Shown here piece after piece: positions 22,378 through 58,797 of a stretch of DNA of 64,000 bases. The stretch covers positions 55,614,001-55,678,000 of the forward strand of contig OX597833.1 of NCBI GenBank assembly GCA_951406725.2, read 5' to 3'. Both the position numbers and the translations under genes were made by a program. This stretch comes from Octopus vulgaris (Eukaryota). The notes beneath the pieces were generated by a model, which saw only the letters and a list, made by a program, of their open reading frames with translations, made no database searches and had not been told where the DNA came from. Every line of letters starts with the position of its first letter. Positions within the stretch are counted from its first letter, which is position 1.

Positions 22378-23337
22378 CCGATCGTCAAACTGTTGCTTCC
22401 TAGGTTCACTAGTTTTAGTGAACTCGAACCATGGATCAAACGTAGACCAAAGTCGGGTGCTTGGCAGGCCGAATGTCGTAAGTCACTCATGCTCCTCTGC
22501 CACACGGGTAATGCTGGTAGCGTGGGTTCCGCTTCGTCATTCTACTGAGGGCTGGTAGAGGCTAGTGTGATGACGCGCTGGGAGAAACCCTGGACTTCGA
22601 CGATGGTCAACTAACCAGCCTGTTCCAAAGGACATTCGGGCCGGGACCCTTGGATAACTTCCAGAGGTCCCTATCCTGGCAATGTTGCCGAGGAACCTTA
22701 CCAGTTCATGATAAACTCGTAGGACACGGTGCCTCCTGCTCACCGAAGATGTGGGCAGAACAGTAATACTGTTCCGCACACATTTGTGCAGTGTTCGGGA
22801 ATTACAGAAATGTGGGTTTACGATGAACGACTGCTGCCACGCCTGGGAAGAATACATCCGTCGTCCGAGTCAGTCACAGAGATTGTTCCACCCCGCACTC
22901 TGAACAGAAAAGGTAAGGTTTGTTTTCTCGTAGTGGTCACGAATGAAAGGATCGGTGACAGGTATCTTCATTTCTGGCCAAAGATTGGCAAACTTCTTTG
23001 TTTTCCTTCTACGAAGGGAAATTAAGGCTAGAGATGAGGTGCCTGTTATCGGATACGTATGGTAAAAGATGGAAGCAAGGGGTATACATGATGGGAATGA
23101 AAGATCCTGTGTGAGCCTAGACCATAAAGATTAAACCAAAAGGTCCAGTGGAGGAACGTGTCTTGCAGGGTCTTAACCGTCTCCCCACTTCATTGCAGTG
23201 TTGTTTTCTTTGTTTTTCACTCGTTTTACTATCATAAATTTTTGATTATTCATTTCTATATATTTTCATACGCTTCCCGACCCCGTGTTCATTTTGTATC
23301 ATCCCCTCTATGATTGGCCCTTGTGGCTTGAATAAAA
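22378..23337 (+). mobile_element. Degenerate L1/Tx1-clade LINE 3' fragment
   Basis: Similar to 292-1125 (GGATAACTTCCAG, TGGCAATG, GATAAACTCG); ends CCCTTGTGGCTTGAATAAA; frameshifted. Confidence 0.7.
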
Positions 23338-23929
23338 TCCTTATTCCTATGCATTAGTAAAGTCGGTATATTTTGGATGGGCTGGCTGCTGTACGGCGAA
23401 CTGTACGCGACCCGGTGTCTATTCTCGAAAATAGTAGTTCTTCGTCCTGACGACATCATTCACGACTGATCTCAAAGGGGATCTATTTCACTGGTTTATA
23501 AGCTCACAGCTGTCGCATGATTTTGGTTTTCGACTATTCGTACTTTGGTCATATACACTCGTAATTCAGTCGTATATAACTGGACCAATCAGTTATGATT
23601 GCAACTATCAGGACAGAACTAACACTGAGGAGAAAAAAAAAACAGGATGGGTGGGGAGCGATGTTGTCCCTTCTAGCATAGCTCTGGTCATTGGTTTAAG
23701 CTATCATATCGCGAAAAGGGGGCATGCTATTATGATAAAGAGGAACACAACTCATTCACTGTTTGTATTAAGTTGCAAGTATATGAATTGTTCGTATACT
23801 TCGTGGGGCTATTTCTATCAATTCTTATAGAATCGTCCATTAGTTTCTAAGGAAATAATCATCCTTTGTTGATTTCAAACCAAATGACATGAAAATTTTC
23901 TGAACCTTTGTCCATGTCTTGTAAATACT

Positions 23930-24145
23930 GGTTTCAAATTTTGGCACAAGGCCAGCAAGTTCAGAGGAGGGGGTAAGCCAATTATATTGGCCCCAGTACT
24001 CAACTGGCATTTATTTTATTTACCCCCGAAAGAATGAAAGGTAAAGTCGACCTCGGCGGAATTTGAACTCTGAACGTAAAGACGGACGAAATGTCGCTAA
24101 GCCTGTTGTCCGGCGTGCTAACGATTCTGTAAGTTCGCTGCCTTA
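23930..24145 (-). mobile_element. SINE family A
   Basis: GTCGACCTCGGCGGAATTTGAACTC..GGCGTGCTAACG. Confidence 0.7.
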
Positions 24146-24564
24146 TGTTTTGTAAATATTCCAAGAAAGAATAGATGCGTGGTGAACAACAGCTTTCCTT
24201 ATTTAGCTTTTCTTTTTCATCTTAAATTCCATTGTTTCTGCTTTCCTGTTTTCACTTCTTTAGCCAAATCTTACAGGCAAGGAACTGTCTAAAGTGTTAC
24301 TTGTATTTAAGACATTGGAATCAACTAAGCGGTTTCAATTCTTAGCTGACGAGAAATTTTGCTTAGGGCTTAGATGCCCTTAGATATCTATGAACGGAAT
24401 ATTTTGTCAGTTTCTGTTAAAAAAAAATTTAAGCAAAAAAAAAAAAAGGATCGTGATGGTCATTCATAAATAATTAATATTGGATGTTTGAGACTATCAG
24501 AGCGAAACGTCAACTTTTATACGTCAGTCATGGAGCGTCTCACTAGTAGACAAAACCTGTCATT

Positions 24565-24672
24565 TCGAGCGAAGAATTTCATTACCGGACATTTCGAGCG
24601 AAGAATTCCATTACCGGACATTTCGAGCGAAGAATTTCATTACCGGACATTTCGAGTGAAGAATTTCATTAT
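24565..24672. repeat. ~29-bp minisatellite
   Basis: CATTTCGAGCGAAGAATTTCATTACCGGA, about 4 copies. Confidence 0.8.
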
Positions 24673-25025
24673 CGTAGCAATTCGCAAGTTTTATTCGATT
24701 CGTTATATACAAATTTGGTTTTCTGTGGGTAGCATTTTAGTATTCGATCCCACAATCATATCTTACATCATGTAAAAATTTTACTCGTTTTTCTGCAAAG
24801 TCCACGGTGTGAAGCTACTATAATATGACCAAGAAATTACAATTATTAAAATCATCTTTGTCAGAACATTCACTAATTGAAATGTCTCGTTTGTATTTAA
24901 ATTTATTTACAATTATTTTTAAAAGCAATTAAAATATTTTAAAAGATAATATACGAAGTACATCTAAAAGTAAATTTAAAAATCAGGAACGATCGAATCG
25001 AGAACGTCGAGGTTCGTTACAGATT

Positions 25026-25464
25026 TTAAACAGCTGAAAAATTCGTAACCAACCTCGGTACACACAACAGAATCAACAGTATGGCACTACCGATTAAAAC
25101 GGACAGAATAATCCAGTCGTAATGTATATAAATGATTATGCTAGCAGACAACACACTAAGTGTGGCACATAGGATGCAGTGAGCATATCTTATTTTCGAG
25201 ATACCTGGGGTTGGTTTCGAAAACGGATAGACGAAGCAGAGAACTGCCAACGAGCTGGCGCCAATAACGGCGTGTAGAACGATTGTCCAGTACTCTGCAG
25301 TGTCTAGATTATGCTTTGCTAGCTGCACTAAACACATGATACTGGAATATAAACAAAATAACGACAGCAGTATGTAGCTGAACATCAAGAAACCGGGCAA
25401 ACGATAATAAGTGGTAGTGTGTTGTTGGTTTTGTTGATGCTGCGGTTGTTGTTGTTGTTCTTGC

Positions 25465-25495
<31 letters not shown>

Positions 25496-26066
25496 GAGAT
25501 CCTCCCGGCGTGGTCGTTTCTGGGTTTTCATCGATGGAAGTTAGTGATAGACGACGTGTTGTCCTCGATTCATTCGATGGCCGTAGCAAATTGTCCATAT
25601 TTATATAATCATTCCTAGCTTCATTCGATGTCCGTAGCGAACTGTCCATATCTAGATAATTACCCCTAGCTTCATTCGATGTCTGTAGCGAACTGTCCAC
25701 AACTAGATAATTACCCCTCGCTTCATTCGATGTCCGTAACGAATTGTCCATATCTAGATAATCACTGCCCGATTCATTCGATCTCCGTAGCGAATTGTCC
25801 ATAATTAGATAATTACTCGTAGAACTATCTGCATAATTATCTTCATCATCCGTATAATTATCTTCATTATCTGCAGAACTACCTCCGTTGTCCACAAAAC
25901 TACTTTCGTTGTCCACAGAACTACCTTCGTTGTCCACAGAAATACCTTCGTTGTCCACAGAATTAACTGGATTAGTTCTTTCCGGGTTCTCCATTATTTC
26001 TTCGTATATATTTTCCGTTTGCTGGTTTTCTTCGTATACATCGTCCATTTGCTGATTTGAAGCCAT
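25026..26066 (-). CDS. Uncharacterised four-TM protein, paralog 5, with expanded Tyr-motif tail (346 aa)
   Basis: Starts MASNQQ; contains YEEI, 7-aa and 20-aa tandem repeats with YxxM, RRLSL, polyQ, then a divergent 4TM domain ending NFSAV. Upstream cassette at 26185-26295. Confidence 0.85.
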
Positions 26067-26334
26067 CTGAATGAAAAGTTTCCCCCTCTCGCTCTTCAAT
26101 ATTAGCAGTTGCCTATGTTTTGTATTTGTTACTTAAAAAAACGACACTAAAAACTCAGCAACACTTTCGTTTGATTTAAATATATAATCTTAAATAAACT
26201 ATTCCATCGTTTCGTCTTGGGTCTTTCTATTTTCTTTGGTCGATCAAAATTTCATGAATGCAGATCATTGTAAGCTACGAAACGGTTTCAATTCATAGCT
26301 AACGTTATCAAATTTCTTCTAATGTCAATGTTTC

Positions 26335-27800
26335 TTATTTCTTTATTACCCACAAGGGGCTAAACATAGAGGGGACAAACAAAGACAGACAAAGGGATTA
26401 AGTCGATTACATCGACCCCAGTGCGTAACTGGTACTTAATTTATCGACCTCGAAAGGATGAAAGGCAAAGTCGACCTCGGCGGAATTTGAACTCAGAACG
26501 TAGTGGCAGACGAAATACCTATTTCTTTACTACCCACAAGGGGCTAAACATAGAGGGGACAAACAAAGACAGACAAAGGGATTAAGTCGATTACATCGAC
26601 CCCAGTGCGTAACTGGTACTTAATTTATCGACCTCGAAAGGATGAAAGGCAAAGTCGACCTCGGCGGAATTTGAACTCAGAACGTAGTGGCAGACGAAAT
26701 ACCTATTTCTTTACTACCCACAAGGGGCTACACACAGAGAGGACAGACAAGGAGATTAAGTCGATTACATCGACCCCAGTGCGTAACTGGTACTTAATTT
26801 ATCGACCCCGAAAGGATGAAAGGCAAAGTCGACCTCGGCGGAATTTGAACTCAGAACGTAGTGGCAGACGAAATACCTATTTCTTTACTACCCACAAGGG
26901 GCTACACACAGAGAGGACAGACAAGGAGATTAAGTCGATTACATCGACCCCAGTGTGTAACTGGTACTTAATTTATCGACCTCGAAAGGATGAAAGGCAA
27001 AGTCGACCTCGGCGGAATTTGAACTCAGAACGTAGTGGCAGACGAAATACCTATTTCTTTACTACCCACAAGGGGCTACACACAGAGAGGACAGACAAGG
27101 AGATTAAGTCGATTACATCGACCCCAGTGTGTAACTGGTACTTAATTTATCGACCCCGAAAGGATGAAAGGCAAAGTCGACCTCGGCGGAATTTGAACTC
27201 AGAACGTAGTGGCAGACGAAATACCTATTTCTTTACTACCCACAAGGGGCTACACACAGAGAGGACAGACAAGGAGATTAAGTCGATTACATCGACCCCA
27301 GTGCGTAACTGGTACTTAATTTATCGACCTCGAAAGGATGAAAGGCAAAGTCGACCTCGGCGGAATTTGAACTCAGAACGTAGTGGCAGACGAAATACCT
27401 ATTTCTTTACTACCCACAAGGGGCTACACACAGAGAGGACAGACAAGGAGATTAAGTCGATTACATCGACCCCAGTGTGTAACTGGTACTTAATTTATCG
27501 ACCCCGAAAAGATGAAAGGCAAAGTCGACCTCGGCGGAATTTGAACTCAGAACGTAGTGGCAGACGAAATACCTATTTCTTTACTACCCACAAGGGCTAC
27601 ACACAGAGAGGACAGACAAGGAGATTAAGTCGATTACATCGACCCCAGTGTGTAACTGGTACTTAATTTATCGACCCCGAAAGGATGAAAGGCAAAGTCG
27701 ACCTCGGCGGAATTTGAACTCAGAACGTAGCGGCAGCCGAAACACCGCTAAGCATTTCACCCGGCGTGCTAACGTTTCTGCCAGCTCGTCGCCTTAATTG
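26335..27800 (-). mobile_element. Concatemer of 8 SINE family A units
   Basis: Units start at about 26336, 26520, 26704, 26878, 27052, 27226, 27400 and 27574 (184/174-bp period). Only the last has the tRNA-like head. 19-bp TSD CTTCTAATGTCAATGTTTC at 26316-26334 and 27801-27819. Confidence 0.9.
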
Positions 27801-27979
27801 CTTCTAATGTCAATGTTTCGGGAGCAGGATGGATACGAGAACTCGTTTCCAAAGAAATGTGTGCACTTTTTCCGGCGACGCCTTGCTTCATTGTTCTACA
27901 CGGGTGGTTATACAGATACAGTAATGGATTTTACAACCAAACTCGACGGCCCACCTTGACTCACGGTGGAATGGATGGA

Positions 27980-28360
27980 AGCACTCTGTCGGTTACGACG
28001 ATGAGGGTTCCGGTTGATCCGAATCAACGGAACAGCCTGCTCGTGAAATTAACGTGTAAGTGGCTGAGCACTCCACAGACACGTGCACCCTTAACGTAGT
28101 TCTCGGGGATATTCAGCGTGACACAGAGAGTGACAAGGCCGGCCCCTTGAAATACAGGTACAACAGAAACAGGAAGTACGAGTGAGAGAAAGTTGTGGTG
28201 AAAGAGTACAGCAGGGATCACCACCATCCCCTGCCGGAGCCTCGTGGAGCTTTTTAGGTGTTTTCGCTCAATAAACACTCACAACGCCCGGTCTGGGAAT
28301 CGAAACCGCGATCCTATGACCGCGAGTCCGCTGCCCTAACCACTGGGCCATTGCGCCTCC
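27980..28360 (-). mobile_element. tRNA-derived SINE (family C)
   Basis: Reverse complement of GGCGCAATGGCCCAGTGGTTAGGGCAGCGGACTCGCGG..GGTTTCGATTCCC. Confidence 0.8.
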
Positions 28361-28511
28361 ACTCAACATTTTATAATAGTCTGATACATTAATATTATTG
28401 TTTGTTTTCAAATTACCAGAACTTATCATAAATAGTATTTCTTTTTTGTTCATTTTAATTTCGAAGTATTTCACTTTATCTTCGTAATTATCCAATTTCT
28501 TTTTATCAGAT

Positions 28512-28845
28512 ACGAGCAGTATCGCCCGGCGTTGCTCGGGTTTGTAAGGGAAATAACTATATAAGCATTTTTAGAGAGTTATAGCCAAAAAATAGCAAAG
28601 AAATGCATTAAAAATGGAAAAAAAATGATGGTAAATTTTTTTAAAATCGTTGACTCACCGTAGACATTTTTAGAGAGTTACTTCCCTTTTATAATAGCGA
28701 AAAAATGCATTAAAATGGAAAAAAATGATGGTAATTTTTTTTTTAAATCGTAGACTCATCGTATACGCGCGCTAATACCCAGAAGGGATCGATATGAATC
28801 ACGACTATAAGATACCCGGTTTTGGTTAAACTGCACCGCAAAATG
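28512..28845 (-). mobile_element. Non-autonomous Helitron fragment
   Basis: GCAGTATCGCCCGGCGTTGCTCGGG hairpin end; same family as 45577 and 63070. Confidence 0.65.
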
Positions 28846-29524
28846 TGGGTTATCAAGCAATGCTAGGGGGACAAACACAGACACACAAAAATATACACAC
28901 ACATACATATATATATATATATACATATATACGACGAGCTTCTTTCAGTTTCCGTCTACCAAATCCACTCACTGGTCGGTCCGAGGCTCTAGTAGAAGAC
29001 ACTTGCCCAATGTGCCACGCAGTGGGACTGAAATCGGAACCATGTGGTTGGGAAGCAAGCTACTTACCACACAGCCACCCCTGCGCCTGGGAATACTTTT
29101 CTTCTTTCGTGTCACCAATGTCACCTTGAAAAGCGTTACGGTCGTTACTTTTTTACCCAGTATGGACGACGCGTAGAAGAGGAATTGAGACAGGTAAATT
29201 CATGTCCGGGCGCGGGTTGATTAGTTTTTTTCAACTATCACCTGAGGAGTAAGATCCGTCTGGAGAGGAAATTCCTGTCTCAAGGTATGTTCGGGAAAAG
29301 ATGGACGCCTGTCGTAAGAATGATGCGAGAGGAAGGTGCCGAGCCGGTGTAGCCAGTCCGAAAGGGGGGGGAAAAAAAAGGAAAAAAACAAAAGTGAAAA
29401 GAACCGGTCGATTGATTGGAACTCTAATCATTCGATTTCATATCAATTATATATTCTTCTCGATTTCCGAATTTTATAAAATTTTTAAATTTCGCTTTAT
29501 TTTTTGAATTTATACCGATTTAGA

Positions 29525-30052
29525 GAAGACTTTTGCGGATTCCATGGACAGCGAGGCTCACCAATGGAGAAGTTCTTAAGCAGATAAGGCCGATAATGTC
29601 GCTAGAATCTGGGATCACCAAGCGTAGATTGGCACATTTCGGTCATATTATGCGGAGAAAATCCCTGGAGAAGGACATCATGCTCGGAATGGTCAGTGGC
29701 AAGAGAGGAAGAGGCCGGCCAAGAACCCGCTGGCTTGACACTATCGGGAGTGATAACGGAATGGACATGACCAATCTGAAGGAAGCGGCCCAGGATAGAA
29801 CTGACTGGAGGAGGACACTGATCCACGGTCATATTATGCGGAGAGAATCCCTGGAGAAGGACATCATGCTCAGAATGGTCAGCGGCAAGAGAGGAAGAGG
29901 CCGACCAAGAACCCGCTGGCTTGACACTATCGGGAGTGATAACGGAATGGACATGACCAATCTGAAGGAAGCGGCCCAGGATAGAACTGACTGGAGGACA
30001 CTGATCCATGGAGTAACCGAGAGTCGACTTCGACCGAGCGGATAGAGAGAGA
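29525..30052 (+). mobile_element. RTE-clade LINE 3' end with internal 186-bp tandem duplication
   Basis: RIPWTAR.TN.EVL..RRLAHFGHIMRR..GKRGRGRPRTRWLD; the segment repeats at 29641 and 29827. Confidence 0.85.
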
Positions 30053-30307
30053 TTGTAACATCGTTTTATGTTGTGATGTCCTTGTTCGTCCCCTTCTATA
30101 TAAGTCTTCAATAGACAAATAAAGAAAATGGTTACACTTTTACTATCATTTTCAGATATCATTCATATTATCATATTTTAATTTGTTCTTCATGTGCATT
30201 TTCATGTTCATTCATTATATCGTATTTTATTTTTTAATTGTTATATGTCCCCACATGTGTTGTAGTGTCCCCCTCTGTGTATTGCCTTTATGGCAAATTT
30301 AATAAAA

Positions 30308-30573
30308 TAATGTAAAGTATAGAAGCCATCTTATCATGGCTAACCACATTGGGGAGGGGGTGTTACTGTAGCTTTATAGCCCCAAGAGATCGTCGTCTCT
30401 GCCCCTTGAAGTATTTGCAAAGGGAGGCCATCCCTTTGCAAATACTTCAAGGGCACTGATATGGCGTCTAAAGCCAGCTAGAGACGACGATCTCTTGGGG
30501 CTATAAAGCTACAGTAACACCCCCTCCCCAATGTGGTTAGCCATGATAAGATGGCTTCTATACTTTACATTAT
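30308..30573. mobile_element. Fold-back/MITE-like element with nested inverted repeats
   Basis: About 92-bp near-perfect outer arms around an inner ~24-bp-arm hairpin. Confidence 0.75.
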
Positions 30574-31129
30574 CGAGCGATTACTGTTTCAATCTCACTC
30601 TGAGATTTAATTATGCTTAATAAAATAATGTTACTCTTTTACTAAGCCATAAAACATGACATGAAATGTTTCCAGTCTTGAAATTGAAACCAGGAGGTGT
30701 TTGCCGCTTGTCACGACTTTACCTTTTGCTCTGCAAACTTTCATAAACATTTATAATATTGATTCTTGTGCCTAAGAACACAGACTTTATTAAGAAAGGG
30801 AAAGTGAGAGGATGTAGTGTTTATATATTTCAAACGGCATCTTGAAGCGTAAGTGAAGTTTGATATCGTCAACAAAGAACTGAAACCGTATCGTGGATTT
30901 GAATGATTTGCGTGCAAGAAATTTTGATTAATTTATGAAAATAAAAAAGATGAAAGTCGAAACTGATGGAAGAGTTTATTTAAGGTCACTTTTCTTTTTT
31001 TAAATTCAAGGAGAAATACAGTTGAATTTTAATCGTTTCTTCAGCAATAAATGCTAAACATGATAAAGTGTTACAATTTCGGAGAGAGGAAAATTTTCAT
31101 GTAAGTTGGCTTCAAATAGGCAAAAGAAT

Positions 31130-32053
31130 ATGTCCCAAGAAATAATGGAGGGTTCAGAAAGAATTGAAGACTTTGAAAGAACAGATGATTCCGAAAGACT
31201 AGAAGTCTCTGAAAAACTAGAAGGCGCTGAACGACTGGAAGGCGCTGAACGGCTGGAAGGCGCTGAACGACTGGAAGGCGCTGAACGGCTGGAAGGCGCT
31301 GAACGGCTGGAAGGCGCTGAACGGTTAGAAGGCGCTGAACGGTTAGAAGGCGCTGAACGGTTAGAAGGCGCTGAACGGTTAGAAGGCGCTGAACGGTTAG
31401 AAGACGCTGAACGGCTAGAAGGCGCTGAAATACTAGATTATTATGAAAGAATGGGATATTTTGGAACAATGGTGGATTCTGAAACAACTGATGGAGATGA
31501 CCCTATGGATATTTTGAGCTTTGATCCAACTCGGAACCATATAATAATATACCCAGGGGATAGGAGGCCAATACGTCGTTCGTCATTTTCTTCCTATCTC
31601 GGTAGTGAGGAAAACATAGAAATGACTGCGCCAGGAGAATCTCCACAAAACCAACAACAAAATAACAAGTATTCTAATCTACACTGGCTCTATATAGTCG
31701 GTTATTTAGTGTTGGGTTTGGTCTGTCTATCCTGTGGCATTGTATATCTGTTGCAACTCGTTCGCAATTTTAAAAATATGACTGAGATTTGGAGTTTTAT
31801 TCTCGACATAGTTATATTGTGCAACTCGTTGGCAATCCTCTTCATTGTTTTCCCGGCTTCGAAGCGAAGAACGGTTTTCCCAAATCGCTCTCTTGTCCAC
31901 TGTCTCCTATGTACTTTATTCAATCTGGTGTCTTCAACCATAATCTTCTATTATCATTACGATTGGATAATGTCAGTCGTTCTTGTCAGTAGTATCATAC
32001 TTTTGGTTCTGTTTACTCTACCGGGCACGAGATCGAATTTTACAGTGCTTTAA
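31130..32053 (+). CDS. Uncharacterised four-TM protein, paralog 6, with (LEGAER)n tail (307 aa)
   Basis: 18-bp tandem repeats at 31200-31430; RRSSF..SEENIEMTAPG; 4TM domain ending NFTVL; upstream cassette at 30875-30985. Confidence 0.87.
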   Translation: MSQEIMEGSERIEDFERTDDSERLEVSEKLEGAERLEGAERLEGAERLEGAERLEGAERLEGAERLEGAERLEGAERLEGAERLEGAERLEDAERLEGAEILDYYERMGYFGTMVDSETTDGDDPMDILSFDPTRNHIIIYPGDRRPIRRSSFSSYLGSEENIEMTAPGESPQNQQQNNKYSNLHWLYIVGYLVLGLVCLSCGIVYLLQLVRNFKNMTEIWSFILDIVILCNSLAILFIVFPASKRRTVFPNRSLVHCLLCTLFNLVSSTIIFYYHYDWIMSVVLVSSIILLVLFTLPGTRSNFTVL

Positions 32054-44403: not shown

Positions 44404-45073
44404 TCAAGCCTTTTCGCAGATAGCCTTGTGACCGTTCTTCCATGACAATTTTTGACACTTCGTCGAACAATACCAGGCCTTTTTGCATCGACTGCAAACG
44501 GCAAACTTTTTACCTTCCGGCGCTTTCTTTTGACAATTTGTGCAAACATCCGAGTCGGTCCCTTCGAACTCGCAGCGCCGACATTGACACCAGAAATGAA
44601 AAGACCGGTAGAGCCAAGCACGGCGTAACTTCTGTTGCATCGCCGTGTCTATGTAGGTGATGTGGATCTCCTCTCCCTTGCTAATGGGCCTCCGAGCCAT
44701 CACCCAGATCCCTGGCCGACCAAAAACCTCCCCGTCTAATATATCAGCGTTGTTATCACAAGAGTGGTTTGTGCATGCATGTAGTGGGAAGAGACTGGCC
44801 AGAGATGCATGCGGTGGTTTTTTCTCGAGCATCTTTATCATGGCTACGACAGTCAAGTCCATTTCGGCCTCTTGGAGATTGGCAAGGAATTTGTGGTAAG
44901 GCGTCGTGTATGAGCCGAACGCTTGCAGATTACATGTGGATTGGTTGTACCGACCGTCGAAATCTGCCTTGGTTATTTCGTACGGGATTTTGTAGGACCT
45001 GAAGACGTCTTTAATCAAATCGTAAAACAGCGGATTCTTCTGGACGGCTTTCGATGATCCGAAAGCCACAAAC
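44404..45073 (-). CDS. SMYD-like TPR-SET-MYND methyltransferase, coding exon 4 (last)
   Basis: Acceptor TTCCCTAG|G (phase 2); [13 protein letters not shown], post-SET CQCRRC, C-terminal MYND CTNC..CSRC..YCSTKC..HKAIC; TGA stop. Confidence 0.9.
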
Positions 45074-45319
45074 CTAGGGAACAAAAGGGAAATAAAATTT
45101 TAGGCAAAATGATAAGATTATGTGTGTGTGTGTGTGTGTGTGAGACAGAGAGAGTGGAAAGAGAGGGAGAGAGAAAGAAAGGGAGAGGTAGAGTAGAAAA
45201 TAGAGTAAAATTAGCATCATATATATATATATATATATGTATATGTATGTATAAATATATATGTATATGTATGTATAAATATATATGTATATGTATATAT
45301 ATATGTATATGTATATATG

Positions 45320-45353
<34 letters not shown>

Positions 45354-45359
45354 TGTATG

Positions 45360-45425
<66 letters not shown>

Positions 45426-46139
45426 TAAATTAGAGATAAAACCACTATTAGGCAAATCATACAATGAAAAACTTAAGCCAATACATAAGATTATTTAATT
45501 TATATTATTTAAATATATAACAAAATTATTTAAAAATATATAACAAAATTATTAATAATTTTGTTATATATTTAAACTAGCAGTATCGCCCGGCGTTGCT
45601 CGGGTTTGTAAGGGAAATAATTATATAAGCATTTTTAGAGATGTAAAGTATAATAGCCATCTCAATATGGCTAACCACAAAGGGGGAGGGGTGTTACTGT
45701 AGCTTTTTACGTTCTGAGATTTAATAATAAATTTTAGAGAGTTACTTCCCTTATATATGTCAAAAATAGATTAAAAATGGGAAAAATTGATGGTAAATTT
45801 TTTTATAAATCGTAGACTCATCGTAGACGCGCGCTAATACCCAGACGGTCTCGATATGAATCACGACTATAAGATACCCGGTTTTGGTTAAACTGCACCG
45901 CAAAATGTGGGAGTAGTTAGGAATCTAAATCGTAGGAGACAGACACACAACCTCACTTTTATCTATAAAGATTTCCTCTATTTACATAATATTGAGGTCT
46001 CTTTCTTTCTTTTGTTATCTTACTGTTTTTACCAATATACATATATATATATATATATATATAAATATATATATAGTTACAGAGATGTACTTGCATAGCA
46101 AGTGACTTGATCTGAGATCGTGTGCTGGAACGAAAACAG

Positions 46140-46398
46140 TTGCAGCGTTGAAGGTGTTTATAAGCCATTTAAGAAACACACAAAAACCGTTAGATTCACT
46201 TCAACATTTAAATTTAATTTGTCAAAATATTTTCGTCGCTTTGAGACCGCGACCTGTTAGCACGATATTTTTGTCAGTGAACAGGTGGCGGTCTCAAAGC
46301 GACGAAAATATTTTGGCAAATTAAATTTAAATGTTGAAGTGAATGTAACGGTTTTTGTGTGTTTCTTAAATGGCTTACAAACACCTTCCACGCTGCAA
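46140..46398. repeat. Long inverted repeat (~118-bp arms); second copy at 48323-48581
   Basis: TTGCAGCGTTGAAGGTG...CACCTTCCACGCTGCAA. Confidence 0.85.
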
Positions 46399-46759
46399 TA
46401 TATATATACACATATATATATATGTATGTATGTGTGTATATGTGTATGCATGTATGTGTGTGTGTGTGTGTGTGCGTGTCTGTGCTTGTGATTGTCCTCC
46501 ACCACTGCTTGACAACGAATGTTGGTTTGTTTACATCCCTGTCACCTAGTGGTTTGACAAAGGAAACAGATAGAATAAGTACAATGCTTACAAAAATAAA
46601 ACTGGAGTTGATTCATTAAACTACAATTCTTCAAGGCATTGCCCCAGCATGGCCACAGACCAATGGCTGGAAAAAGCAGAAGAATAAAAGAATACATTCT
46701 CTGCTTTGGTCATATGTTGAAGGCATGAGAAAGCTTGAGTTTACATGAGAAGGCCTAAC

Positions 46760-47245
46760 AGACCTGGTAGAAACAGCAGCCAAATCTCCCTCAAATCACA
46801 CCTTACTGTCTTATGTATGTATATATATATATGAGCCAATGAGGGGGACCTCTACATGGTAGCTAGACCTGGTAGAAATAGCAGCCAAATTTCCCCCAAA
46901 TCACACCTTACTGTCTCATCTATGTATATATGTATGTATGAGCCTATGAGGGAGACCCCTCATGGCAGCTAGACCTGGTAGAAATAGCAGCCAAATTTCC
47001 CCCAAATCACACCTTACTGTCTTATCTATGTATATATGTATGTATGAGCCTATGAGGGAGACCCCTACATGGCAGCTAGACCTGGTAGAAATAGCAGCCA
47101 AATTTCCCCCAAATCACACCTTACTGTCTTATCTATGTATATATATATGTATGTATGAGCCTATGAGGGAGACCCCTACATGGCAGCTAGACATGGTAGA
47201 AATAGCAGCCAAATCTCCCTCAAATCACACCTTACTGTCTTATCT
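46760..47245. repeat. ~107-bp tandem repeat; also at 48912-49392
   Basis: AGACCTGGTAGAAATAGCAGCCAAATTTCCCCCAAATCACACCTTACTG units. Confidence 0.85.
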
Positions 47246-49481
47246 TTCTGCTACTTGGATATAGGTATTATATTCGTCGTAAAAAAACTTTCCTGTCACA
47301 CACTCACGCACACGCACACACACACACACACACGCACCCTCACACACACACACACGCGCACACCCACACCCACCCACTCACACACACGCACGTTAGCTTA
47401 CAATTTTATTTATATATTTGCGTGTCTGTGTGGAAAGAAGAAGTGGGAGGCAGAGTGAAAGAATCACTCACTACAGTAAGTGAATTTACTTTCATTTTAT
47501 TCGTTGCCCACTGTGTGTGTGCGTTTGCGTGTGGTGTAAACCAGACTAAGAAAAGCATTTGACACACACACCAGAATGTGAGTTTTCTGTAAATTTTGCT
47601 TAACTGGAGTTTAAATTTTAAAAACTGGAGCTGGCATGACGCGATGCATTGTACTCTTAAAAATGCAAGGTAAATTGTAATTGAAGAAATCCTATATTGT
47701 AGATTTGTATAACTCCCAAAGGGAGGCAGATAAAATCTGCCTTTTATAATAAGAAGACTAGCAGTATCGCCCGGCGTTGCTCGGGTTTGTAAGGGAAATA
47801 ATTATATAAGCATTTTTAGAGATGTAAAGTATAATAGCCATCTCAATATGGCTAACCACAAAGGGGGAGGGGTGTTACTGTAGCTTTTTACGTTCTGAGA
47901 TTTAATAATAAATTTTAGAGAGTTACTTCCCTTATATATGTCAAAAATGGATTAAAAATGGGAAAAATTGATGGTAATTTTTTTTTTAAATCGTAGACTC
48001 ATCGTAGACGCGCGCTAATACCCAGACGGTCTCGATATGAATCACGACTATAAGATACCCGCTTTTGGTTAAACTGCACCGCAAAATGTGGGAGTAGTTA
48101 GGAATCTAAATCGTAGGAGACAGACACACAACCTCACTTTTATATATAAAGATTTCCTCTATTTACATAATATTGAGGTCTCTTTCTTTCTTTTGTTATC
48201 TTACTGTTTTTAACAATATACATATATACATATATATATATATATAAATGTATAAATAGTTACAGAGATGTACTTGCATAGCAAGTGACTTGATCTGAGA
48301 TCGTGTGCTGGAACGAAAACAGTTGCAGCGTTGAAGGTGTTTATAAGCCATTTAAGAAACACACAAAAACCGTTAGATTCACTTCAACATTTAAATTTAA
48401 TTTGTCAAAATATTTTCGTCGCTTTGAGACCGCGACCTGTTAGCACGATATTTTTGTCAGTGAACAGGTCGCGGTCTCAAAGCGACGAAAATATTTTGGC
48501 AAATGAAATTTAAATGTTGAAGTGAATGTAACGGTTTTTGTGTGTTTCTTAAATGGCTTACAAACACCTTCCACGCTGCAATATATATATACACACATAT
48601 ATATATATGTATGTATGCATGTATGTGTGTGTGTGTGCGTGTCTGTGCTTGTGATTGTCCTCCACCACTGCTTGACAACGAATGTTGGTTTGTTTACATC
48701 CCTGTCACCTAGTGGAAACAGATAGAATAAGTACAATGCTTACAAAAATAAAACTGGAGTTGATTCATTAAACTACAATTCTTCAAGGCATTGCCCCAGC
48801 ATGGCCACAGACCAATGGCTGGAAAAAGCAGAAGAATAAAAGAATACATTCTCTGCTTTGGTCTTATGTTCAAGGCATAAGAAAGCTTGAGTTTACATGA
48901 GAAGGCCTAACAGACCTGGTAGAAACAGCAGCCAAATCTCCCTCAAATCACACCTTACTGTTTTATGTATGTATATATATATGAGCCAATGAGGGGCACC
49001 TCTACATGGTAGCTAGACCTGGTAGAAATAGCAGCCAAATTTCCCCCAAATCACACCTTACTGTCTTATCTATGTATATATGTATGTATGAGCCTATGAG
49101 GGAGACCCCTACATGGCAGCTAGACCTGGTAGAAATAGCAGCCAAATTTCCCCCAAATCACACCTTACTGTCTTATCTATGTATATATGTATGTATGAGC
49201 CTATGAGGGAGACCCCTACATGGCAGCTAGACCTGGTAGAAATAGCAGCCAAATTTCCCCCAAATCACACCTTACTGTCTTATCTATGTATATATGTATG
49301 TATGAGCCTATGAGGGAGACCCCTACATGGCAGCTAGACATGGTAGAAATAGCAGCCAAATCTCCCTCAAATCACACCTTACTGTCTTATCTTTCTGCTA
49401 CTTATATTCGTCGTAAAAAACTTTCCTGTCACACACTCACGCACACGCACACACACACACACACACACGCGCGCACCCTCA

Positions 49482-49520
<39 letters not shown>

Positions 49521-50725
49521 TCACACACACGCACGTTAGCTTACAATTTTATTTATATATTTGCGTGTCTGTGTTGAAAGAGGAAGTGGGAGGCAGAGTG
49601 AAAGAATCACTCACTACAGTAAGTAAATTACTTTCATTTTATTCGCTGCCCACTGTGTGTGTGCGTTTGCGTGTGGTGTAAACCAGACTAAGAAAAGCAT
49701 TTGACACACACACCAGAATGTGAGTTTTCTGTAAATTTTGCTTAATTGGAGTTTAAATTTTAAAAACTGGACCTGGCATGACGCGATGCATTGTACTCTT
49801 AAAATTGCTAGGTAAATTGTAATTGAAGAAATCCTATATTGTAGATTTGTATAACTCCCAAAGGGAGGCAGATAAAATCTGCCTTTTATAATAAGAGATA
49901 ACATAAATTAAATAATCTTATGTATTGGCTTAAGTTTTTCATTGTATGATTTGCCTAATAGTGGTTTTATCGCTAATTTAATATAATATAATATTTTACT
50001 ATAAAATTGGATTCAATCCTAAATCTGATTTTTCCCTGTAAGTTTGGATTTATTCCCTAATATTTATTATTAATTTATATATATTTATATATATATAAAT
50101 GTATATTGATAGGAATGGTAAGACAACAAAAGAATGAAAGAGACCTCGATATTATGTAAATAGAGGAATTTTTTCTGTAAAATTAATATGTGACAATTAT
50201 TCAGTATCCATGATAAAATTCCGAGTTTCAGATGTCGGAGCAGAAACCCACGCTGCCATCTCTTCAGTTATATGGCCACTGAAAAATTATATACATATAT
50301 ATATACATACATATATACATAGGCGCAGGAGTGGCTGTGGTAAGTAGCTTGTTTACCAACCACATGGTTCCGGGTTCAGTCCCACTGTGTGGCACCTTGG
50401 GCAAATGTCTTCTACTATAGCCTCGGGCCAACCAAAGCCTTGTGAGTAGATTTGGTAGACAGAAACTGAAAGAAGCCCTTCGTATATATGTATATATCTA
50501 TATGCGTGTGTGTGTTTGTGTGTCTGTGTTTGTCCCCCTAGCATTGCTTGACAACCGATGCTGGTGTGTTTATATCCCCGTTACTTAGCGGTTCGGCAAA
50601 AGAGGCCGATAGAATAAGTACTGGGCTTACAAAAGAATAAGTCCCGGGGTTGAGTTGCTCGATTAAAGGCAGTGCTCCACCATGGCCACAGTCAAATGAC
50701 TGAAACAAGTAAAAGAGTAAAAGAG

Positions 50726-50791
<66 letters not shown>

Positions 50792-50897
50792 CATGTATAT
50801 GAATGTATATGCGAGTGTGTGCTTACATGTATGTGCGTGTGTGTGCATGTATGTTTTCTCCAAACTTGGAAATACACAGAACCACCAACATATTTAC

Positions 50898-51107
50898 CTT
50901 CTGTAAGGGGCCTTAGATATAGACCAATGTAAGAGTGAGGGTTCAGTGAGGCCTTCCTCCTCCATCAGTTTCTGGGCATAGCTGATCATCGAAGCATACA
51001 TCCGTGGAATAATCATGGGGCTGAAATGGCCACCCCAGTACTCCTCTCGCATCCTTGTTTCCGGGTTAACTGCCAAGCCGTCACCATCTCGAACATCATA
51101 CAACAGA
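50898..51107 (-). CDS. SMYD-like gene, coding exon 3
   Basis: TTGCAG| acceptor (phase 2) and AG|GTAAAT donor (phase 2); LLYDVRDG..APYR. Confidence 0.85.
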
Positions 51108-51142
51108 CTGCAAGCAAAGAAATGAAAAGGAAGACATATATA

Positions 51143-51179
<37 letters not shown>

Positions 51180-51184
<5 letters not shown>

Positions 51185-51416
51185 ACACTGCTTTCTTAAA
51201 GAACGAATGGAATAGATTGCAAATGTAGCCTTAGAAATCCCTAAAAAGAGCAGGAAGGTCATGGCTGGAGTGTTTTTCATGATAAGTATGGTTGGTCAAG
51301 ATTCACCTAACTTATCATGAAAAGCACTCCAGCCATGACCATCCTGTTTCTTTAAGGATTTCTAAGGCTACATTTGTAACGTATTCCATTCTTTCTTTAA
51401 GAAAGCCGTGTGTGAT
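51180..51416. repeat. Inverted repeat of a dispersed repeat (related copy at 43620-43835)
   Basis: TCACACACTGCTTTCTTAAAGAA...TTCTTTAAGAAAGCCGTGTGTGA. Confidence 0.7.
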
Positions 51417-52427
51417 TTGAGGGCGTTTTGCCTGCTATTTCTAGCAGGACAAGCGACCATGTAGAAACTTCCTTATTGACATTTTAGTATTATTCCAGTG
51501 TCTATCGATACTGGAAAAAGGTATAAGTATTTGTGAAGGGAACAACTTCCCATCGACAACTGTGATTGTCACACGCCGATGACAGGTCAATATTCAGAAA
51601 CTCGAGTCCGTGTGTATCATAAGTTGAAGACAGGAAGGATGACTTCCCTTTGCAAATACTGCTAAGCATTTCATCCAGTGCGGTAATGATTCAGCCAGTT
51701 TATTGCCTTAGTCATCATCATCCTCATCATCATCATCATCATCACCGTTTAACGTCTGCTTTCCATGCTAGCATGGGTTGGACGATTTGACTGAGGACAG
51801 GACTGGCAAACCAGATGGCTGCACCAGGCTCCAATCTGATCTGGCAGAGTTTTTACAGCTGGATGCCCTTCCTAGCGCCAACCACTCCGAGAGTGTAGTG
51901 GGTGCTCTTACGTGCCACTGGCATGGGTGCCAGTCAGGCGGTACTGGCAATGGCCATGCTCAAATGGTGGTTTTTACGTGCCACCTGCAGAGGAACCAGT
52001 CCAGCGGCACTGGCAACTACCTCGCTCGAATGTTTTTTTCCCGTGCCACCAGCACAAGTGCCAGTAAGGTGACGCTGGTAACAATCATGCTCGAATGGTG
52101 CCTTTGAGTGTTGCCTTAAGTAAATATGAGTTTGAAATTCTGAGACAAGGCTAGCAATTTCAGGGGTGTGGGGCCAGTCAATTACAGCAACCCCAGTGCG
52201 TAACTGGTACCTAATTTATCGACTCCGAAAGGATGAAAGGCAAAGCTGACCTCAGCATAATTTGAATTCAGAATGTAAAGACAGATGAAACATCACTAAA
52301 CATTTTACCTGGCTTGTTAATCAATTCTCCCAGCTTTCTGATTTAGTGTAAATAAATACCATGTGTAAAATGGTTATAGAATGGAGTAAATGAGTATTCT
52401 GTGATAAATGGGAGAGAACTCATGGTA

Positions 52428-52706
52428 CAATTTTAAATTGAATCTTGTAATTTTAATTTGAATTTTGTAATTTTAATTTTAATTTTATAATTTTAATTTG
52501 AATCTTATAATTTTAATTTTAATTTTATAATTTTAATTTTAATTTTATAATTTTAATTTGAATTTTTTAATTTGAATTTGAATTTTGTAATTTTAATTTG
52601 AATTTTATAATTTTAATTTTAATCTTATAATTTTAATTTTAATTTTATAATTTTAATTTTAATTTTATAATTTTAATTTGAATTTTATAATTTGAATTTG
52701 AATTTT
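52428..52706. repeat. 20-bp AT-rich minisatellite
   Basis: AATTTTATAATTTTAATTTG units. Confidence 0.9.
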
Positions 52707-52749
52707 CTCTTCTCAAAAGCAGCACCATCACATTAAGAAGGTTACTCAC

Positions 52750-53263
52750 TTGGCAGCTGGATTGTTCTTTGGGCATAACACTCGGTGGTAACCTTCAATT
52801 GCTTCTGTCCGACAAGCTTTGCTGCAGTAGTTCTCACGGTAGCAGTCCTCGCAAGCCACCGAGAACCTCTTCGGCCAGTAGGACTCAATTAACTCTTTTA
52901 ATTCCTCTTTCATCGTGTTGAGTTTATCACCAAAGTAATGCTCAGGCTCCATCAGCGAATAGCCACAGTTATCACATGTAGGAGAAGTTTTGTGGGTATC
53001 CGTGGTTTGCCCGATGACCAATGGACAGTCCTTGAAGATGACCCCATTCGCTTCGATGTCTCTCGTAGCTACAACAGCTTTTCCGTAGCGGGAAAAGACT
53101 ACTTCTACTGGGTAGTCTAGACAAAGTGGGGAGTAGAGACGTTTGACACGAATTTGCTGGAAAGCAATCTTGCACTCTTCATCAGCGTTGTTAGAAAACT
53201 GTGTGGCCTTACGAATCCAGAATTCAGCCAGAACCGGCAGATCTAAATCTTTTAGAATCAGTC
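52750..53263 (-). CDS. SMYD-like gene, coding exon 2
   Basis: TTACAG| acceptor (phase 1) and AA|GTGAGT donor (phase 2); SET-N YGKAVVATRDI and internal MYND-like CDNC..CEDC..YCSKAC..HRVLC. Confidence 0.9.
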
Positions 53264-53473
53264 CTGTAATAGGAAAGGTTGATAGAGAGATATTAACAGA
53301 TAGACAGATCGGTAGCTGGATAGAGAGAGAGAGAGAGATCAATAGGTAGGTAGGTGGATGGGTGGGTAAGTAGATAGGTATGTGGGAAGGTAGGTAGGTA
53401 GGTAGGTAGGTTGGTAGGTATGTATGTAGGCAGGTAGACTGGTAGATCAATAGGTAAGTAGGTAGGTATGTAG

Positions 53474-53505
<32 letters not shown>

Positions 53506-53616
53506 AAAGAGAGAGAGAGAGGGAGGTAAATAGAAAGACAGACAGATAGACTGACAGACAGGCGGACAGACAGACACACAGAGATAGATAGATAGATAGA
53601 CAGACAGAGAGATAGA

Positions 53617-53656
<40 letters not shown>

Positions 53657-53696
53657 GTGATATAGATAGATGGATGGATGGATGGATGGATGTATG

Positions 53697-53751
<55 letters not shown>

Positions 53752-54746
53752 GGATGGATGGATAGATAGATAGATAGATAGAAGACAGAGACAGACAGAC
53801 AGAGTAGGGAAAGAAGTTTGATACTTGATGTTTTATGTTTTTTCTATTCATTGAAAAGATGCTTTAACCCGCACCTCCACCATATGCACATACAATCTAA
53901 TGTGTGACCAGGCTACATGGTAATTAGATATGCTAGAAATAATAGCCAAATCTCCCTTCCACCAAAACATAATACACCATAATATCAAACAAGGAAAAAG
54001 CTCACGAGTAGTTTGCATTGTAAGATTTGTGATACTCCAATGACAGAGAATAAGGTTTTGAATGTTTAATGTCAACTTTGTGAAGGTGAGTTGAGAAAGT
54101 ACTGATTCATTGACCGATGTAGACATGATATGCATAAACATCTCAACTCTCTCCTAATTTAAGGTTAAGATGAAAAAAAAAAATCAAACCAAATTCGACG
54201 ACTGGCACCCATGCCAACCTCCCTTCATTGGACACTAACCTCTGCTTGTGAAGACCTGTTGGAGCAAGTGAAATTGAAATCGAAATTGAACCAAATTCGA
54301 TGAATGACACCCATGCCAGTGGAGCGCTAACAGCTCCATCTGAGTGGGATCACTGCCAGAGCGGCTGTCTGGCTTCCATGCCGGTGGCACATTGTAAAAA
54401 GCACCATTTGAGCGTGATCGTTACCAGCGTCGTCTTACTGGCACTTGTGCCAGTGGCATGTGAAAAAACATTCAAGCGAGGTACCACTGGACTGACTCCT
54501 GTGCAGGTGGCACGTAAAAAACACCATTTCGAGCATGACAATTGCCAGTACCACCAGACTGGCCCTCGTGCTGGTGGTACGTAAAAGCACCCACTACACT
54601 CACGGAGTGGTTGGCGTTAGGAAGGGCATCCAGCTGTAGAAACTCTGCCAGATCAAGATTGGAGCCTGGTGCAACCATCTGGTTCGCCAGTCCTCAGTCC
54701 AATCGTCCAACCCATGCTAGCATGGAAAGCGGATGTTAAATAATGA

Positions 54747-54780
<34 letters not shown>

Positions 54781-54844
54781 TAGCTAAACACAGAAGGGAC
54801 AAAATACAATAGTAGAGCTTTTCTTTTTGGGAAGGAGAGAAGGG

Positions 54845-55072
54845 GAAAAGGGGTGGGGGCGAATTCCGATCAGAAGGGATCGGAAAAAAAGGGGTGGGGA
54901 ATTCCGATCAAAAGGGATCATGAAAAAAAGGGGTGGGGAATTCCAATCGAAAGAGATCGTGAAAAAAGGTGGGGGCAAATTCCAATCAAAAGGGATTGGT
55001 AAAAAAAGGGGTGGGGGAATTCTGATCAAAAGGGATCGTGAAAAAAAAAGTGGGGCCGATCAATAGGGATCG
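54845..55072. repeat. ~33-bp G-rich minisatellite
   Basis: GGGGTGGGGAATTCCGATCAAAAGGGATC.TGAAAAAA units. Confidence 0.75.
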
Positions 55073-55528
55073 TGTATCACAGAAATGTCAATGTAAAAAG
55101 GGAAAACAGATTAGGTTTGTCTGTGGATAGAAAAGCCTACGGAAAAGACCACGGGAACTTCAGCAAACTAAATGCAATGTAGCTTGATGCTTATGTTGAA
55201 CACAACATGACCTAAACAGAATGGTGCCTAATGAAATATGTAACACTGGTCTAGAACAGAACAAAGCATAAATTAACCCTTTAGCATTGAAACTGACCAT
55301 ATCTGACCCAAACATTCTACATATTTCATGTTGAAACTGGCCATATCCAGCCTCTCACACCTACCTTACAATGTAAACAGTCACATTTTCAAAATTTTGA
55401 AATAAGCATTACATTTGATAAATTAATCCGAATGCTAAAATGTTAAACTACAGTATCTAAGATTAGTAAGAGATTATTGTCTTATGGCAGTGGTTCTTAA
55501 CTTTTATTTTTCTTGTAGTCCCATCCCA

Positions 55529-55834
55529 TAGTAGAGATTCCTTCTCGAGCCATGCCTGGCTCCAAAGGGCCGGTTTCCCAGTTTCTTGGTGTATAGGTTC
55601 CCCACCTGGACGGGACACCGGTCCGTCGCAGGTGAGCTGCAAGATGCAGGAGGAAAGAGTGAGAGAAAGTTGTGGCGAAAGAGTCAGCAGAAGTTTCGCC
55701 ATTACCTTCTGCTGGAGCCGCGTGGAGCTTAGGTTTTTTACTCATAAACACACACATCGCCCGGTCTGAGATTCGAACCTGCAATCCCTCGACAGTGAGT
55801 CTGCTGCTCTAACCATTAGGCCATATGCCTCCAC
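55529..55834 (-). mobile_element. SINE family C variant
   Basis: tRNA-like head at the right end; TSD AGTCCCATCCCA. The empty-site version occurs at 57190-57201. Confidence 0.75.
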
Positions 55835-56304
55835 AGTCCCATCCCATCACTTTTAAGCAATTGGTATGCCTAGTGCCCACCTAAGTGGCAACTGAGGTAT
55901 CACAACTAAACTAACTTAAACTAGATGATAATTTATAAATTTTACTCTAAAAATGGATTGCATAAGTTTTTAACAGTGAAATGACAAAAAAAAAAATTAA
56001 TAAAGGCAAAACTTGTAAATTTACTTTATAAATTAATTACCAGTTAATGACTTCCCTGTGCCTGGTGAGCTCTCATCTCATTTCAATGACCATAACTAGT
56101 TTTAACATGTATAATATGATCATGACTATAGGTAAAATTAACGCTGGAGTCGCCGTGTGGTAAGTAGCTTGCTTACCAACCACATGGTTCTGGGTTCAGT
56201 CCCACTGTGTGGCACCTTGGGCAAGTGTCTTCTACTATAGCCTCGGGTCAACTAAAGCCTTGTGAGTGGATTTGGTAGACAGAAACTGAAAGAAGCCCAT
56301 CGTA

Positions 56305-56348
<44 letters not shown>

Positions 56349-57525: not shown

Positions 57526-57751
57526 TTAACCCTTTAGCGTTCAGATTATTCCATCAAACATAATGCCTATTGATTCCCATTGATTTGAATTAATCCTGCA
57601 TTATCTCATATCTTCAAGATCTTGATGGTGTAATTACTTAATGTAGAATAACATTGTAGGGTAGGTGTAAGAGCCAGGATCTGGTCAGTTTGAACATAAA
57701 GCAGATTAACTATTTGGCCGGATATGGCCGGTTTAAATACTAAAGGGTTAA
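57526..57751. mobile_element. piggyBac-like MITE
   Basis: TTAA-CCCTTTAG ... CTAAAGGG-TTAA; shorter related copy at 55272-55446. Confidence 0.7.
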
Positions 57752-57921
57752 TATCCACTGAACTTAAGAAAAATTAAGGAAAAAATTGTAAAAATATTAA
57801 TCAACAAGATATACCACAGATTAAAAATTAATTTTGCGGTACTGTCATCGAAAAATGGATTTAAAAATCCCATTTATATCCCCCAGAATCCTTATCAGAC
57901 CAAACTAAAAATCATACATAC

Positions 57922-58705: not shown

Positions 58706-58797
58706 TGTTGTGTTTTCTGGTATTAATCAAAATCTTAATGTGCTTCAGTTCTAATCTCACTTCAAACACAATATGATTCCAAACTCAGACTTCCACA

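Follow-up and report, generated by a model that had tools for sequence, protein, structure and literature searches.

The locus raises the question of whether tandem repeat growth has equipped a membrane protein of Octopus vulgaris with a tail that recruits phosphotyrosine-binding proteins. The gene concerned, P5, is one of seven paralogs encoded in the window, that is, the whole stretch of 64,000 nucleotides that was analyzed (Table 1). We assign a probability of roughly 0.45 to the reading that the N-terminal tail of P5 is a recently built multivalent SH2-docking tail. As judged from the sequence, the tyrosine repeat array is a real but young feature of an unnamed family, and its SH2-docking role is putative.

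Table 1. Features of the P5 gene and its paralogs, with positions counted from the first nucleotide of the window.
Feature	Position	Strand	Remarks
P5 open reading frame	25026..26066	-	346 aa from first in-frame ATG; single unbroken frame
Upstream 10-mer GAATTGAAAC	26285..26294	-	in 11/17 paralogs within 450 nt
Conserved upstream block with TATA-like TATTTAA end	26189..26205	-	exact in 6/17 paralogs, looser form in 11/17
30-bp duplication giving DDVYEE (Y11) and ENIYEEI (Y21)	25997..26058	-	upstream of family-wide start codon
Third in-frame ATG (M25)	25992..25994	-	matches start position of most paralogs; Kozak context strongest of the three ATGs (A at −3, G at +4)
Tyr-free 21-bp/7-aa array, 4.2 copies	25874..25962	-	tandem repeat call
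Acidic EDNY motif pair (Y71, Y78) without hydrophobic +3	25830..25870 (ends approximate)	-	translation
51-bp/17-aa array, 5 copies (Y86/Y103/Y120/Y137/Y154), four YxxM	25562..25820	-	repeat call and translation
RRLS...EN segment, common to the family	25497..25565	-	paralog alignment
Poly-Gln run, trinucleotide repeat	25420..25496	-	
Four-helix membrane domain; loop 2 is basic and loop 3 very short	25026..25412	-	hydropathy and model
Paralog P1	2506..3171	+	stop-to-stop frame
Paralog P2	6573..7265	+	
Paralog P3	8566..9240	+	
Paralog P4	15235..15972	+	
Paralog P6	31067..32053	+	Tyr-free 18-bp array, 12.8 copies; one YERM
Paralog P7	39283..39942	-	

The tyrosine motifs named by the initial annotation (DDVYEE, ENIYEEI, and those of the five repeats) are all present in the minus-strand frame from 26066 to 25026, Y11 at nt 26036 and Y21 at nt 26006. 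The array motifs are, in order, NYLIM (Y86), DYLDM (Y103), NYLVV (Y120), NYLDM (Y137), and DYINM (Y154). YxxM is found in four of the five copies, the methionine being lost in the remaining one, and Asn at +2 occurs in copy 5 only, which forms the single YINM. The unit measures 17 aa/51 bp (TRF 25562–25818, 5.0 copies, 85% matches) instead of the 20 aa/60 bp given previously. Additional elements of the tail are the tyrosines Y71 and Y78 (EDNY twice), the Tyr-free 21-bp array, the 30-bp duplication underlying the YEE motifs, and the Gln run. The 17-aa unit derives from the conserved segment that precedes RRLS in the family. P5 is the only one of 17 paralogs with YxxM at the array site, and both a 12-nt deletion and a one-codon insertion are compatible with the origin of this motif. 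Immediately ahead of the EENIEM segment, the majority of paralogs carry a recurrent RR-x-S motif, which presumably fits a basophilic kinase site.

A genome search placed 17 family members in approximately 115 kb of contig C20, seven of them inside the window. Partial copies of the membrane domain are dispersed at C6:100891145-100891408 (87% identity to L007) and C24:37472933-37473154. Genome searches with L007, P0014, and P0010 revealed no more distant members beyond the 17 and the C6 and C24 fragments, numbers that are lower bounds. A gene resembling SMYD (TPR, SET, and MYND exons) flanks the cluster on the minus strand (window 44404–58726). Seventeen related proteins emerged when 1.84 billion representatives were searched with a profile. 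Seven of the 10 that were looked up have named source organisms, all of them octopods (O. sinensis, O. bimaculoides, and Argonauta): LOC118766890 (Octopus sinensis), LOC106882980 (O. bimaculoides), and five hypothetical proteins of Argonauta hians, all uncharacterised. These relatives resemble P5 in the membrane domain, but none has a Tyr array. The TM part of P0004 (O. sinensis) is identical to that of L009, with a different repeat make-up. PPxY-type motifs, which hint at binding of Nedd4-type ligases, occur in the N-tails of the distant members P0014 and P0017.

P5 and L018, a second family member of interest here, were not found in the protein collection, in which none of nine ORF forms from this genome had an exact match. 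Used at full length as protein-search queries, both remained without a match, the repeats probably swamping the word index. No Pfam family reached the cut-off for the family, and a ThiD2 score on the P0004 repeats, which was sub-domain-level, was taken as spurious. A PDB sequence profile search gave 0 matches at E up to 5, every match of the Atlas searches stayed below 0.9, and Rfam gave 0 matches in 23000–31200. A literature search found no paper naming the accessions of the two annotated relatives, and a keyword search found no published description of the family; further supplements of PMC9068888 (e.g., Supplementary Table 4, squid arrays) could bear on it. The clusters that this paper lists for cephalopods are different ones, and a search of one supplement gave no match to the family. 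On these comparisons, the four-pass family is an orphan and octopod-only among its named relatives.

The membrane domain is under constraint in part of the family. The median TM dN/dS over all 136 paralog pairs was 0.56, and three of five pairs tested singly were significantly below 1, among them P5 versus L006 (0.38, Fisher p=5e-5) and L018 versus L016 (0.50, p=0.007). P5 versus P3 (0.70, p=0.15) and L016 versus P4 (0.92, p=0.89) were without significant constraint. In L016 (C20:55582029-55582394), the C-terminus is cut short by a TAG close to where helix 4 ends. Since P0007 ends at the same residue, L016 is likely not a broken gene.

A hydropathy scan of P5 detected only four hydrophobic segments, all of them C-terminal, and none at the N-terminus. 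AlphaFold modeled a four-helix bundle for P5 with a pLDDT of 73.9 (model helices 7–33, 38–61, 72–97, and 100–126 of the membrane domain) and for L007 with one of 82.4 (33-row alignment). Basic residues are concentrated in loop 2 (mean K+R 3.5, compared with 1.56 in loop 1 and 0.17 in loop 3; 18 rows), which by the positive-inside rule, according to which basic loops lie on the cytosolic side, would place the N-tail in the cytosol. Both termini of P5 are predicted to be inside, and the cytosolic N-terminus that the initial annotation had asked to be confirmed is thereby borne out at the level of prediction, by hydropathy and positive-inside bias. The matches of a structure search, at Z 10–14.7, were designed bundles along with membrane chains of the tetraspan kind, and Foldseek against PDB and viral structures gave no E < 0.001. 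Because these Z values are in the generic bundle range, the fold can be called tetraspan-like only. The short outside loops would make an adaptor or partner subunit likelier than a ligand-binding receptor.

The age of the array was estimated from 4 of the 24 listed sequence runs (X4, X6, X12, and X19). None of the listed runs is on record as RNA, for which X4 is at most a candidate. Small contig sets span most of P5 in X4, whose pieces match 23634–26156 and end in 23 unmatched letters past 26156, and in X12 (24073–25951). All five copies are present in organism C (X12; 25506–25769 with 6 differences, 25749–25951 with none) and at least three in organism B (X6; 25670–26060, where 17 differences and one gap of 21 letters were counted). 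The differences listed for the array, at least three, are common to X4 and X6 and affect copy 3 at positions other than Tyr and +3. Organism E (X19), approximately 10% diverged, contributed a 1587-nt contig matching 25914–26081 (18 differences) and 24648–25407 (69 differences, 15 gaps). This contig continues into the 3′ flank and therefore likely represents the P5 orthologue. Its matched pieces are separated by 179 nt compared with 506 in the window, an in-frame difference of 327 nt. Provided that organism E kept a short linker of Gln besides the RRLS segment (69 nt), no more than one 51-bp copy would fit. According to these alignments, the P5 array is young: It is present in close relatives and missing or single-copy in organism E. 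Conservation in orthologues, proposed earlier as a check on the tyrosine and methionine positions, accordingly gave a weak result as judged from array coverage. The array is spanned in organisms B (at least three copies) and C, but it is missing or single in organism E.

A second tyrosine array was found outside the window in L018 (C20 ~55,600,700–55,601,900). Its 42-bp/14-aa unit carries HTYETV, HTYEKL, HTYEEI, HIYEEI, HIYETL, and HIYGSL, and eight of the ten tyrosines in the tail have a hydrophobic +3. The L018 unit corresponds to the IYEEI-M-x-D-S junction and the P5 unit to the segment before RRLS, which are different parts of the tail. In a TM tree of 35 rows (fragment L013 omitted), P5 grouped with L006 (97/96) and L018 with L016, P4, and P1 (95/98). 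Since L018 belongs to another clade and its unit stems from a different tail part, Tyr arrays appear to have arisen twice, and the L018 array was likely built separately from that of P5. The initial annotation had stated that the other six paralogs lack such arrays and had suggested a division into signaling and non-signaling members. The statement holds for Tyr arrays within the window but not for the family of 17, in which L018 has the larger Tyr array, and the notion that P5 alone signals is wrong as framed.

The upstream identity of P5 is 0.68 to P6 versus 0.55 to its TM sister L006. An AU test of two P5 5′-end groupings (L002 omitted) rejected neither (p-AU 0.33 and 0.42). The 5′ end of P5 may come from the P6/L016/L018 lineage via conversion, and the single IYE motif of P5, L016, and L018 may be ancestral, converted, or convergent. 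Because the grouping test rejected neither arrangement, this motif was not tallied as independent origins. P0007, the sister of L016, is without the IYE tyrosine. In the region C20:55594500-55601000, the promoter block of L018 lies 1.6–1.8 kb upstream of the ATG, displaced by a 1.6-kb insert with 28 ATGs, which makes its expression uncertain, though its TM domain is constrained.

Repeat-grown tails were found in 5 of the 17 paralogs (P5, P6, L009, L012, and L018). Tyr-free repeats are seen in L009 (acidic 11-aa unit, 14.5 copies), L012 (6 aa, 3 copies), and P6 (31199–31429; 6 aa, 12.8 copies), and the Gly-Asn-rich repeats of the P0005 tail are also Tyr-free. Five large arrays were counted (P5 51-bp, P5 21-bp, L018, L009, and P6), three of which lack Tyr, so repeat growth itself requires no signaling role. 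The alternative that survives best, a doubtful one in our judgment, is neutral minisatellite growth in an insertion-tolerant disordered tail, where a Y..M unit was copied by chance and the motifs are unselected. Besides the repeat growth in 5 of 17 paralogs and the three Tyr-free arrays, the missing or single copy in organism E favors this explanation, as do the P5 copies themselves, whose pN/pS of 1.67, from non-independent pairwise counts, does not point to purifying selection. The tyrosine is one of 5 invariant codons out of 17 in these copies, and its constancy is therefore nothing unusual. When the P5 unit is shuffled, a Tyr is followed by a hydrophobic residue at +3 with P=0.25, and Met at +3 has P=0.06 when the array is counted as one unit. 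Whole-tail shuffles produced four or more YxxM in 0 of 10000 cases, a chance test that was dismissed because repeat copies are not independent.

What speaks against neutral growth is the presence, in each of two separate arrays, of a motif seldom seen in other tails. Y-x-x-[MILV] occurs 6 times in the 213 residues of the P5 tail and 8 times in the 268 of L018, whereas a set of 31 other tails totaling 2734 residues (15 from this genome and 16 from the database; near-duplicates P0004 and P0018 excluded) contains it 8 times. It is absent from 13 of the 15 other own-genome tails. The probability that a unit-length window contains the motif is 0.02–0.06 (28 array-free tails). Y-x-x-hydrophobic in two of the five large arrays corresponds to p ~0.013 in a post hoc test, and any Tyr in two of five to p=0.18. 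The L018 unit fits the pattern hydrophobic-Y-acid-x-hydrophobic with a shuffle P=0.009; its six core copies have a pN/pS of 0.59, again from pairwise counts that are not independent, and have kept the Tyr through a TAC/TAT change as well as the hydrophobic +3. The YEE and EDNY motifs of P5 are duplicated too, which also speaks against neutral growth.

The pattern Y-x-x-hydrophobic also serves as a sorting signal, which is recognized by the mu subunits of clathrin adaptors. It is conceivable, albeit improbable, that the motifs are such unphosphorylated signals and that the family comprises endosomal/lysosomal tetraspans like LAPTM. The identical motif pattern, the PPxY-type motifs of the distant P0014 and P0017, and the short outside loops fit this explanation, but no such motif is found in the 13 own-genome tails mentioned above, and long tandem arrays in combination with the acidic I-Y-E-E-I context presumably suit kinase substrates better.

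Whether the tail is translated as read depends on the start codon. In the DNA alignment, the family start, used by most paralogs, corresponds to M25 of P5 (nt 25994) directly after YEEI. The YEE motifs lie upstream of this start, in a stretch that is thus likely part of the leader in the majority of paralogs. Two further in-frame ATGs precede M25 in P5 (M1 at nt 26066, and M7), both in a weaker context; an upstream in-frame ATG of this type is common to L016, L018, P0002, and P0007, and no further ATG is present from nt 26206 to 26067. Under first-AUG scanning, M1 would be expected to serve as the start despite its weaker context. Splicing at an AG before M1 is possible. The YxxM array is included in the protein from any of the three starts, and the YEE motifs, being upstream of M25, are translated only from M1 or M7. 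That the tail is not made as read, owing to an M25 start, a splice removing the 5′ part, or scant expression, is very improbable. In its favor, the start common to the family, M25, also has the best context, an AG preceded by pyrimidines stands just before M1, acceptor-like sites recur in the paralogs, and none of the three P5 start forms has a matching protein record. Against it, an M25 start would drop only the YEE motifs and keep the array, no ATG intervenes between nt 26206 and 26067, the upstream ATG is shared with the four members named, and the TM domain is constrained versus the sister L006.

The conserved block approximately 130 nt upstream of M1 has a TATA-like end and is likely the core promoter. 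Farther upstream, the 10-mer GAATTGAAAC, which we take to resemble an IRF-type site, was detected in 11 of 17 paralogs about 225–365 nt upstream of the start, though synonymous divergence is near 1, and in 6 of 284 background window tiles, which include the paralogs themselves. A short uORF of 4–16 codons with A at −3 is found at one homologous leader position (~−75 to −95 from the family ATG) in P1, P2, P4, P6, L011, L012, and L016; P5 has ATA at that position and no leader uORF. Translational control by this recurrent uORF is possible. Adjoining the P5 promoter block upstream, a 174-bp unit forms 6.8 tandem copies (window 26384–27746). The element is very deep in all four comparison runs and has further copies upstream of L018 and L016, which makes a SINE-type repeat likely.

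According to the SH2-docking reading, P5 would be a predicted four-pass protein whose predicted cytosolic N-tail carries a recently amplified tyrosine motif in five copies. A Src- or Abl-type kinase would phosphorylate ENIYEEI and the array tyrosines, pYxxM pairs would be engaged by the tandem SH2 domains of p85, and pYINM would recruit an adaptor of the Grb2 type. pYEEI is the best ligand of the Src SH2 domain, and the Grb2 SH2 domain requires Asn at +2. The genome has a p85-like locus on C23, where exons for iSH2 and one for SH2 were found, and 36 SH2 matches among 54 candidates. The assignment of motifs to SH2 ligands made in the initial annotation agrees with the excerpted text of PMC3192283, in which YINM of DAP10 recruits p85 and Grb2-Vav1, and with the presence of this p85-like gene. 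An increase in array copy number could raise avidity, as does EPIYA-C duplication in CagA; the consulted section of PMC4623810 reports a more than 100-fold gain in SH2 binding upon duplication of a phosphotyrosine unit. Phosphorylated sites of the ENIYE and ESIYEEI type are described for Tarp and an Anaplasma ankyrin protein in the part of PMC2999339 consulted. L018 would have arrived separately at a similar state with YEEI-type copies, and the paralogs would differ in signaling output on a common membrane core.

A broader idea, which we consider unlikely, is that the family repeatedly gives birth to multivalent phosphotyrosine scaffolds, with the gain of an upstream ATG recruiting old leader sequence as a Src-type YEEI site, minisatellites separately multiplying YxxM in P5 and YEEI in L018, and the cluster possibly being immune-inducible, as the IRF-like 10-mer hints. 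If the scaffold reading is true, an animal host would itself encode, in a fast-diversifying cluster, an equivalent of the EPIYA arrays of bacterial effectors, which vary in copy number. If the motifs work, the birth of a signaling tail would be visible on one core that carries none, one motif, or an array, with two separate origins and the approximately 10% diverged, array-less orthologue as a natural control, and a first function would be assigned to an unnamed octopod gene family. If the motifs are idle, the locus is a warning that repeat growth alone can yield textbook SH2 motifs by chance.

Among known systems, MS4A/CD20-like subunits (IgE-receptor beta chain and CD20) and sarcospan, the four-helix chain of the dystrophin-glycoprotein complex, are comparable to P5 in clustered genes and Tyr motifs in cytosolic tails, and their four-helix bundle may be comparable to its modeled one. 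Both ends are inside in the MS4A/CD20-like proteins, as predicted for P5. The fold matches included 9c3c_n (Z 12.8 and 13.5, rmsd 2.4/2.2, 118/115 aligned), 8yvu_F (Z 11.3, rmsd 3.2, 111 aligned), and 6y92_A (Z 10.6 and 10.0), the tetraspan/sarcospan identities of these chains being inferred from entry titles and lengths. Designed bundles outscored the tetraspan chains in this search, with Z in the range of any helical bundle. Pfam CD20 matched neither the seven window paralogs (E up to 1) nor 12 relatives (E up to 0.05). Unlike the MS4A/CD20-like proteins, P5 has a loop 3 of only 2–3 residues and N-terminal tandem YxxM/YEEI motifs rather than an ITAM. A tetraspanin identity was rejected, since the loop between helices 3 and 4 comprises 2–3 residues without CCG and a large second outside loop is required. 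The lysosomal tetraspans LAPTM4/5 have PY motifs in their cytosolic tail; no such motif is present in P5, and PPxY-type motifs were seen only in P0014 and P0017. Bax inhibitor-1/TMBIM emerged as an Atlas lead of 0.82 for P0014, with the family on 36% of cluster members, and appeared neither as a Pfam match nor among the listed fold rows.

DAP10 and other single-pass adaptors have YINM in common with P5, which possesses four YxxM on the predicted cytosolic side. P5 differs in being four-pass rather than single-pass and in having five copies rather than one; its four helices exclude a DAP10-type single-pass adaptor, and the shared four letters of YINM show no kinship with DAP10. In the EPIYA-like arrays of CagA, Tarp, Tir, and the Anaplasma ankyrin protein, ENIYE, EHIYD, and ESIYEEI resemble ENIYEEI of P5 and HIYEEI (PMC2999339, in the part consulted), and copy-number growth of a disordered tail is a further likeness (PMC4623810, likewise in part). 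P5, in contrast to these secreted effectors, is a host-encoded membrane protein in an animal gene cluster, with putative phospho-sites. P5 falls outside MS4A in the sequence tests and lacks what defines a tetraspanin or a single-pass adaptor. By analogy, it would function like a tetraspan signaling subunit with DAP10- and EPIYA-like motifs.
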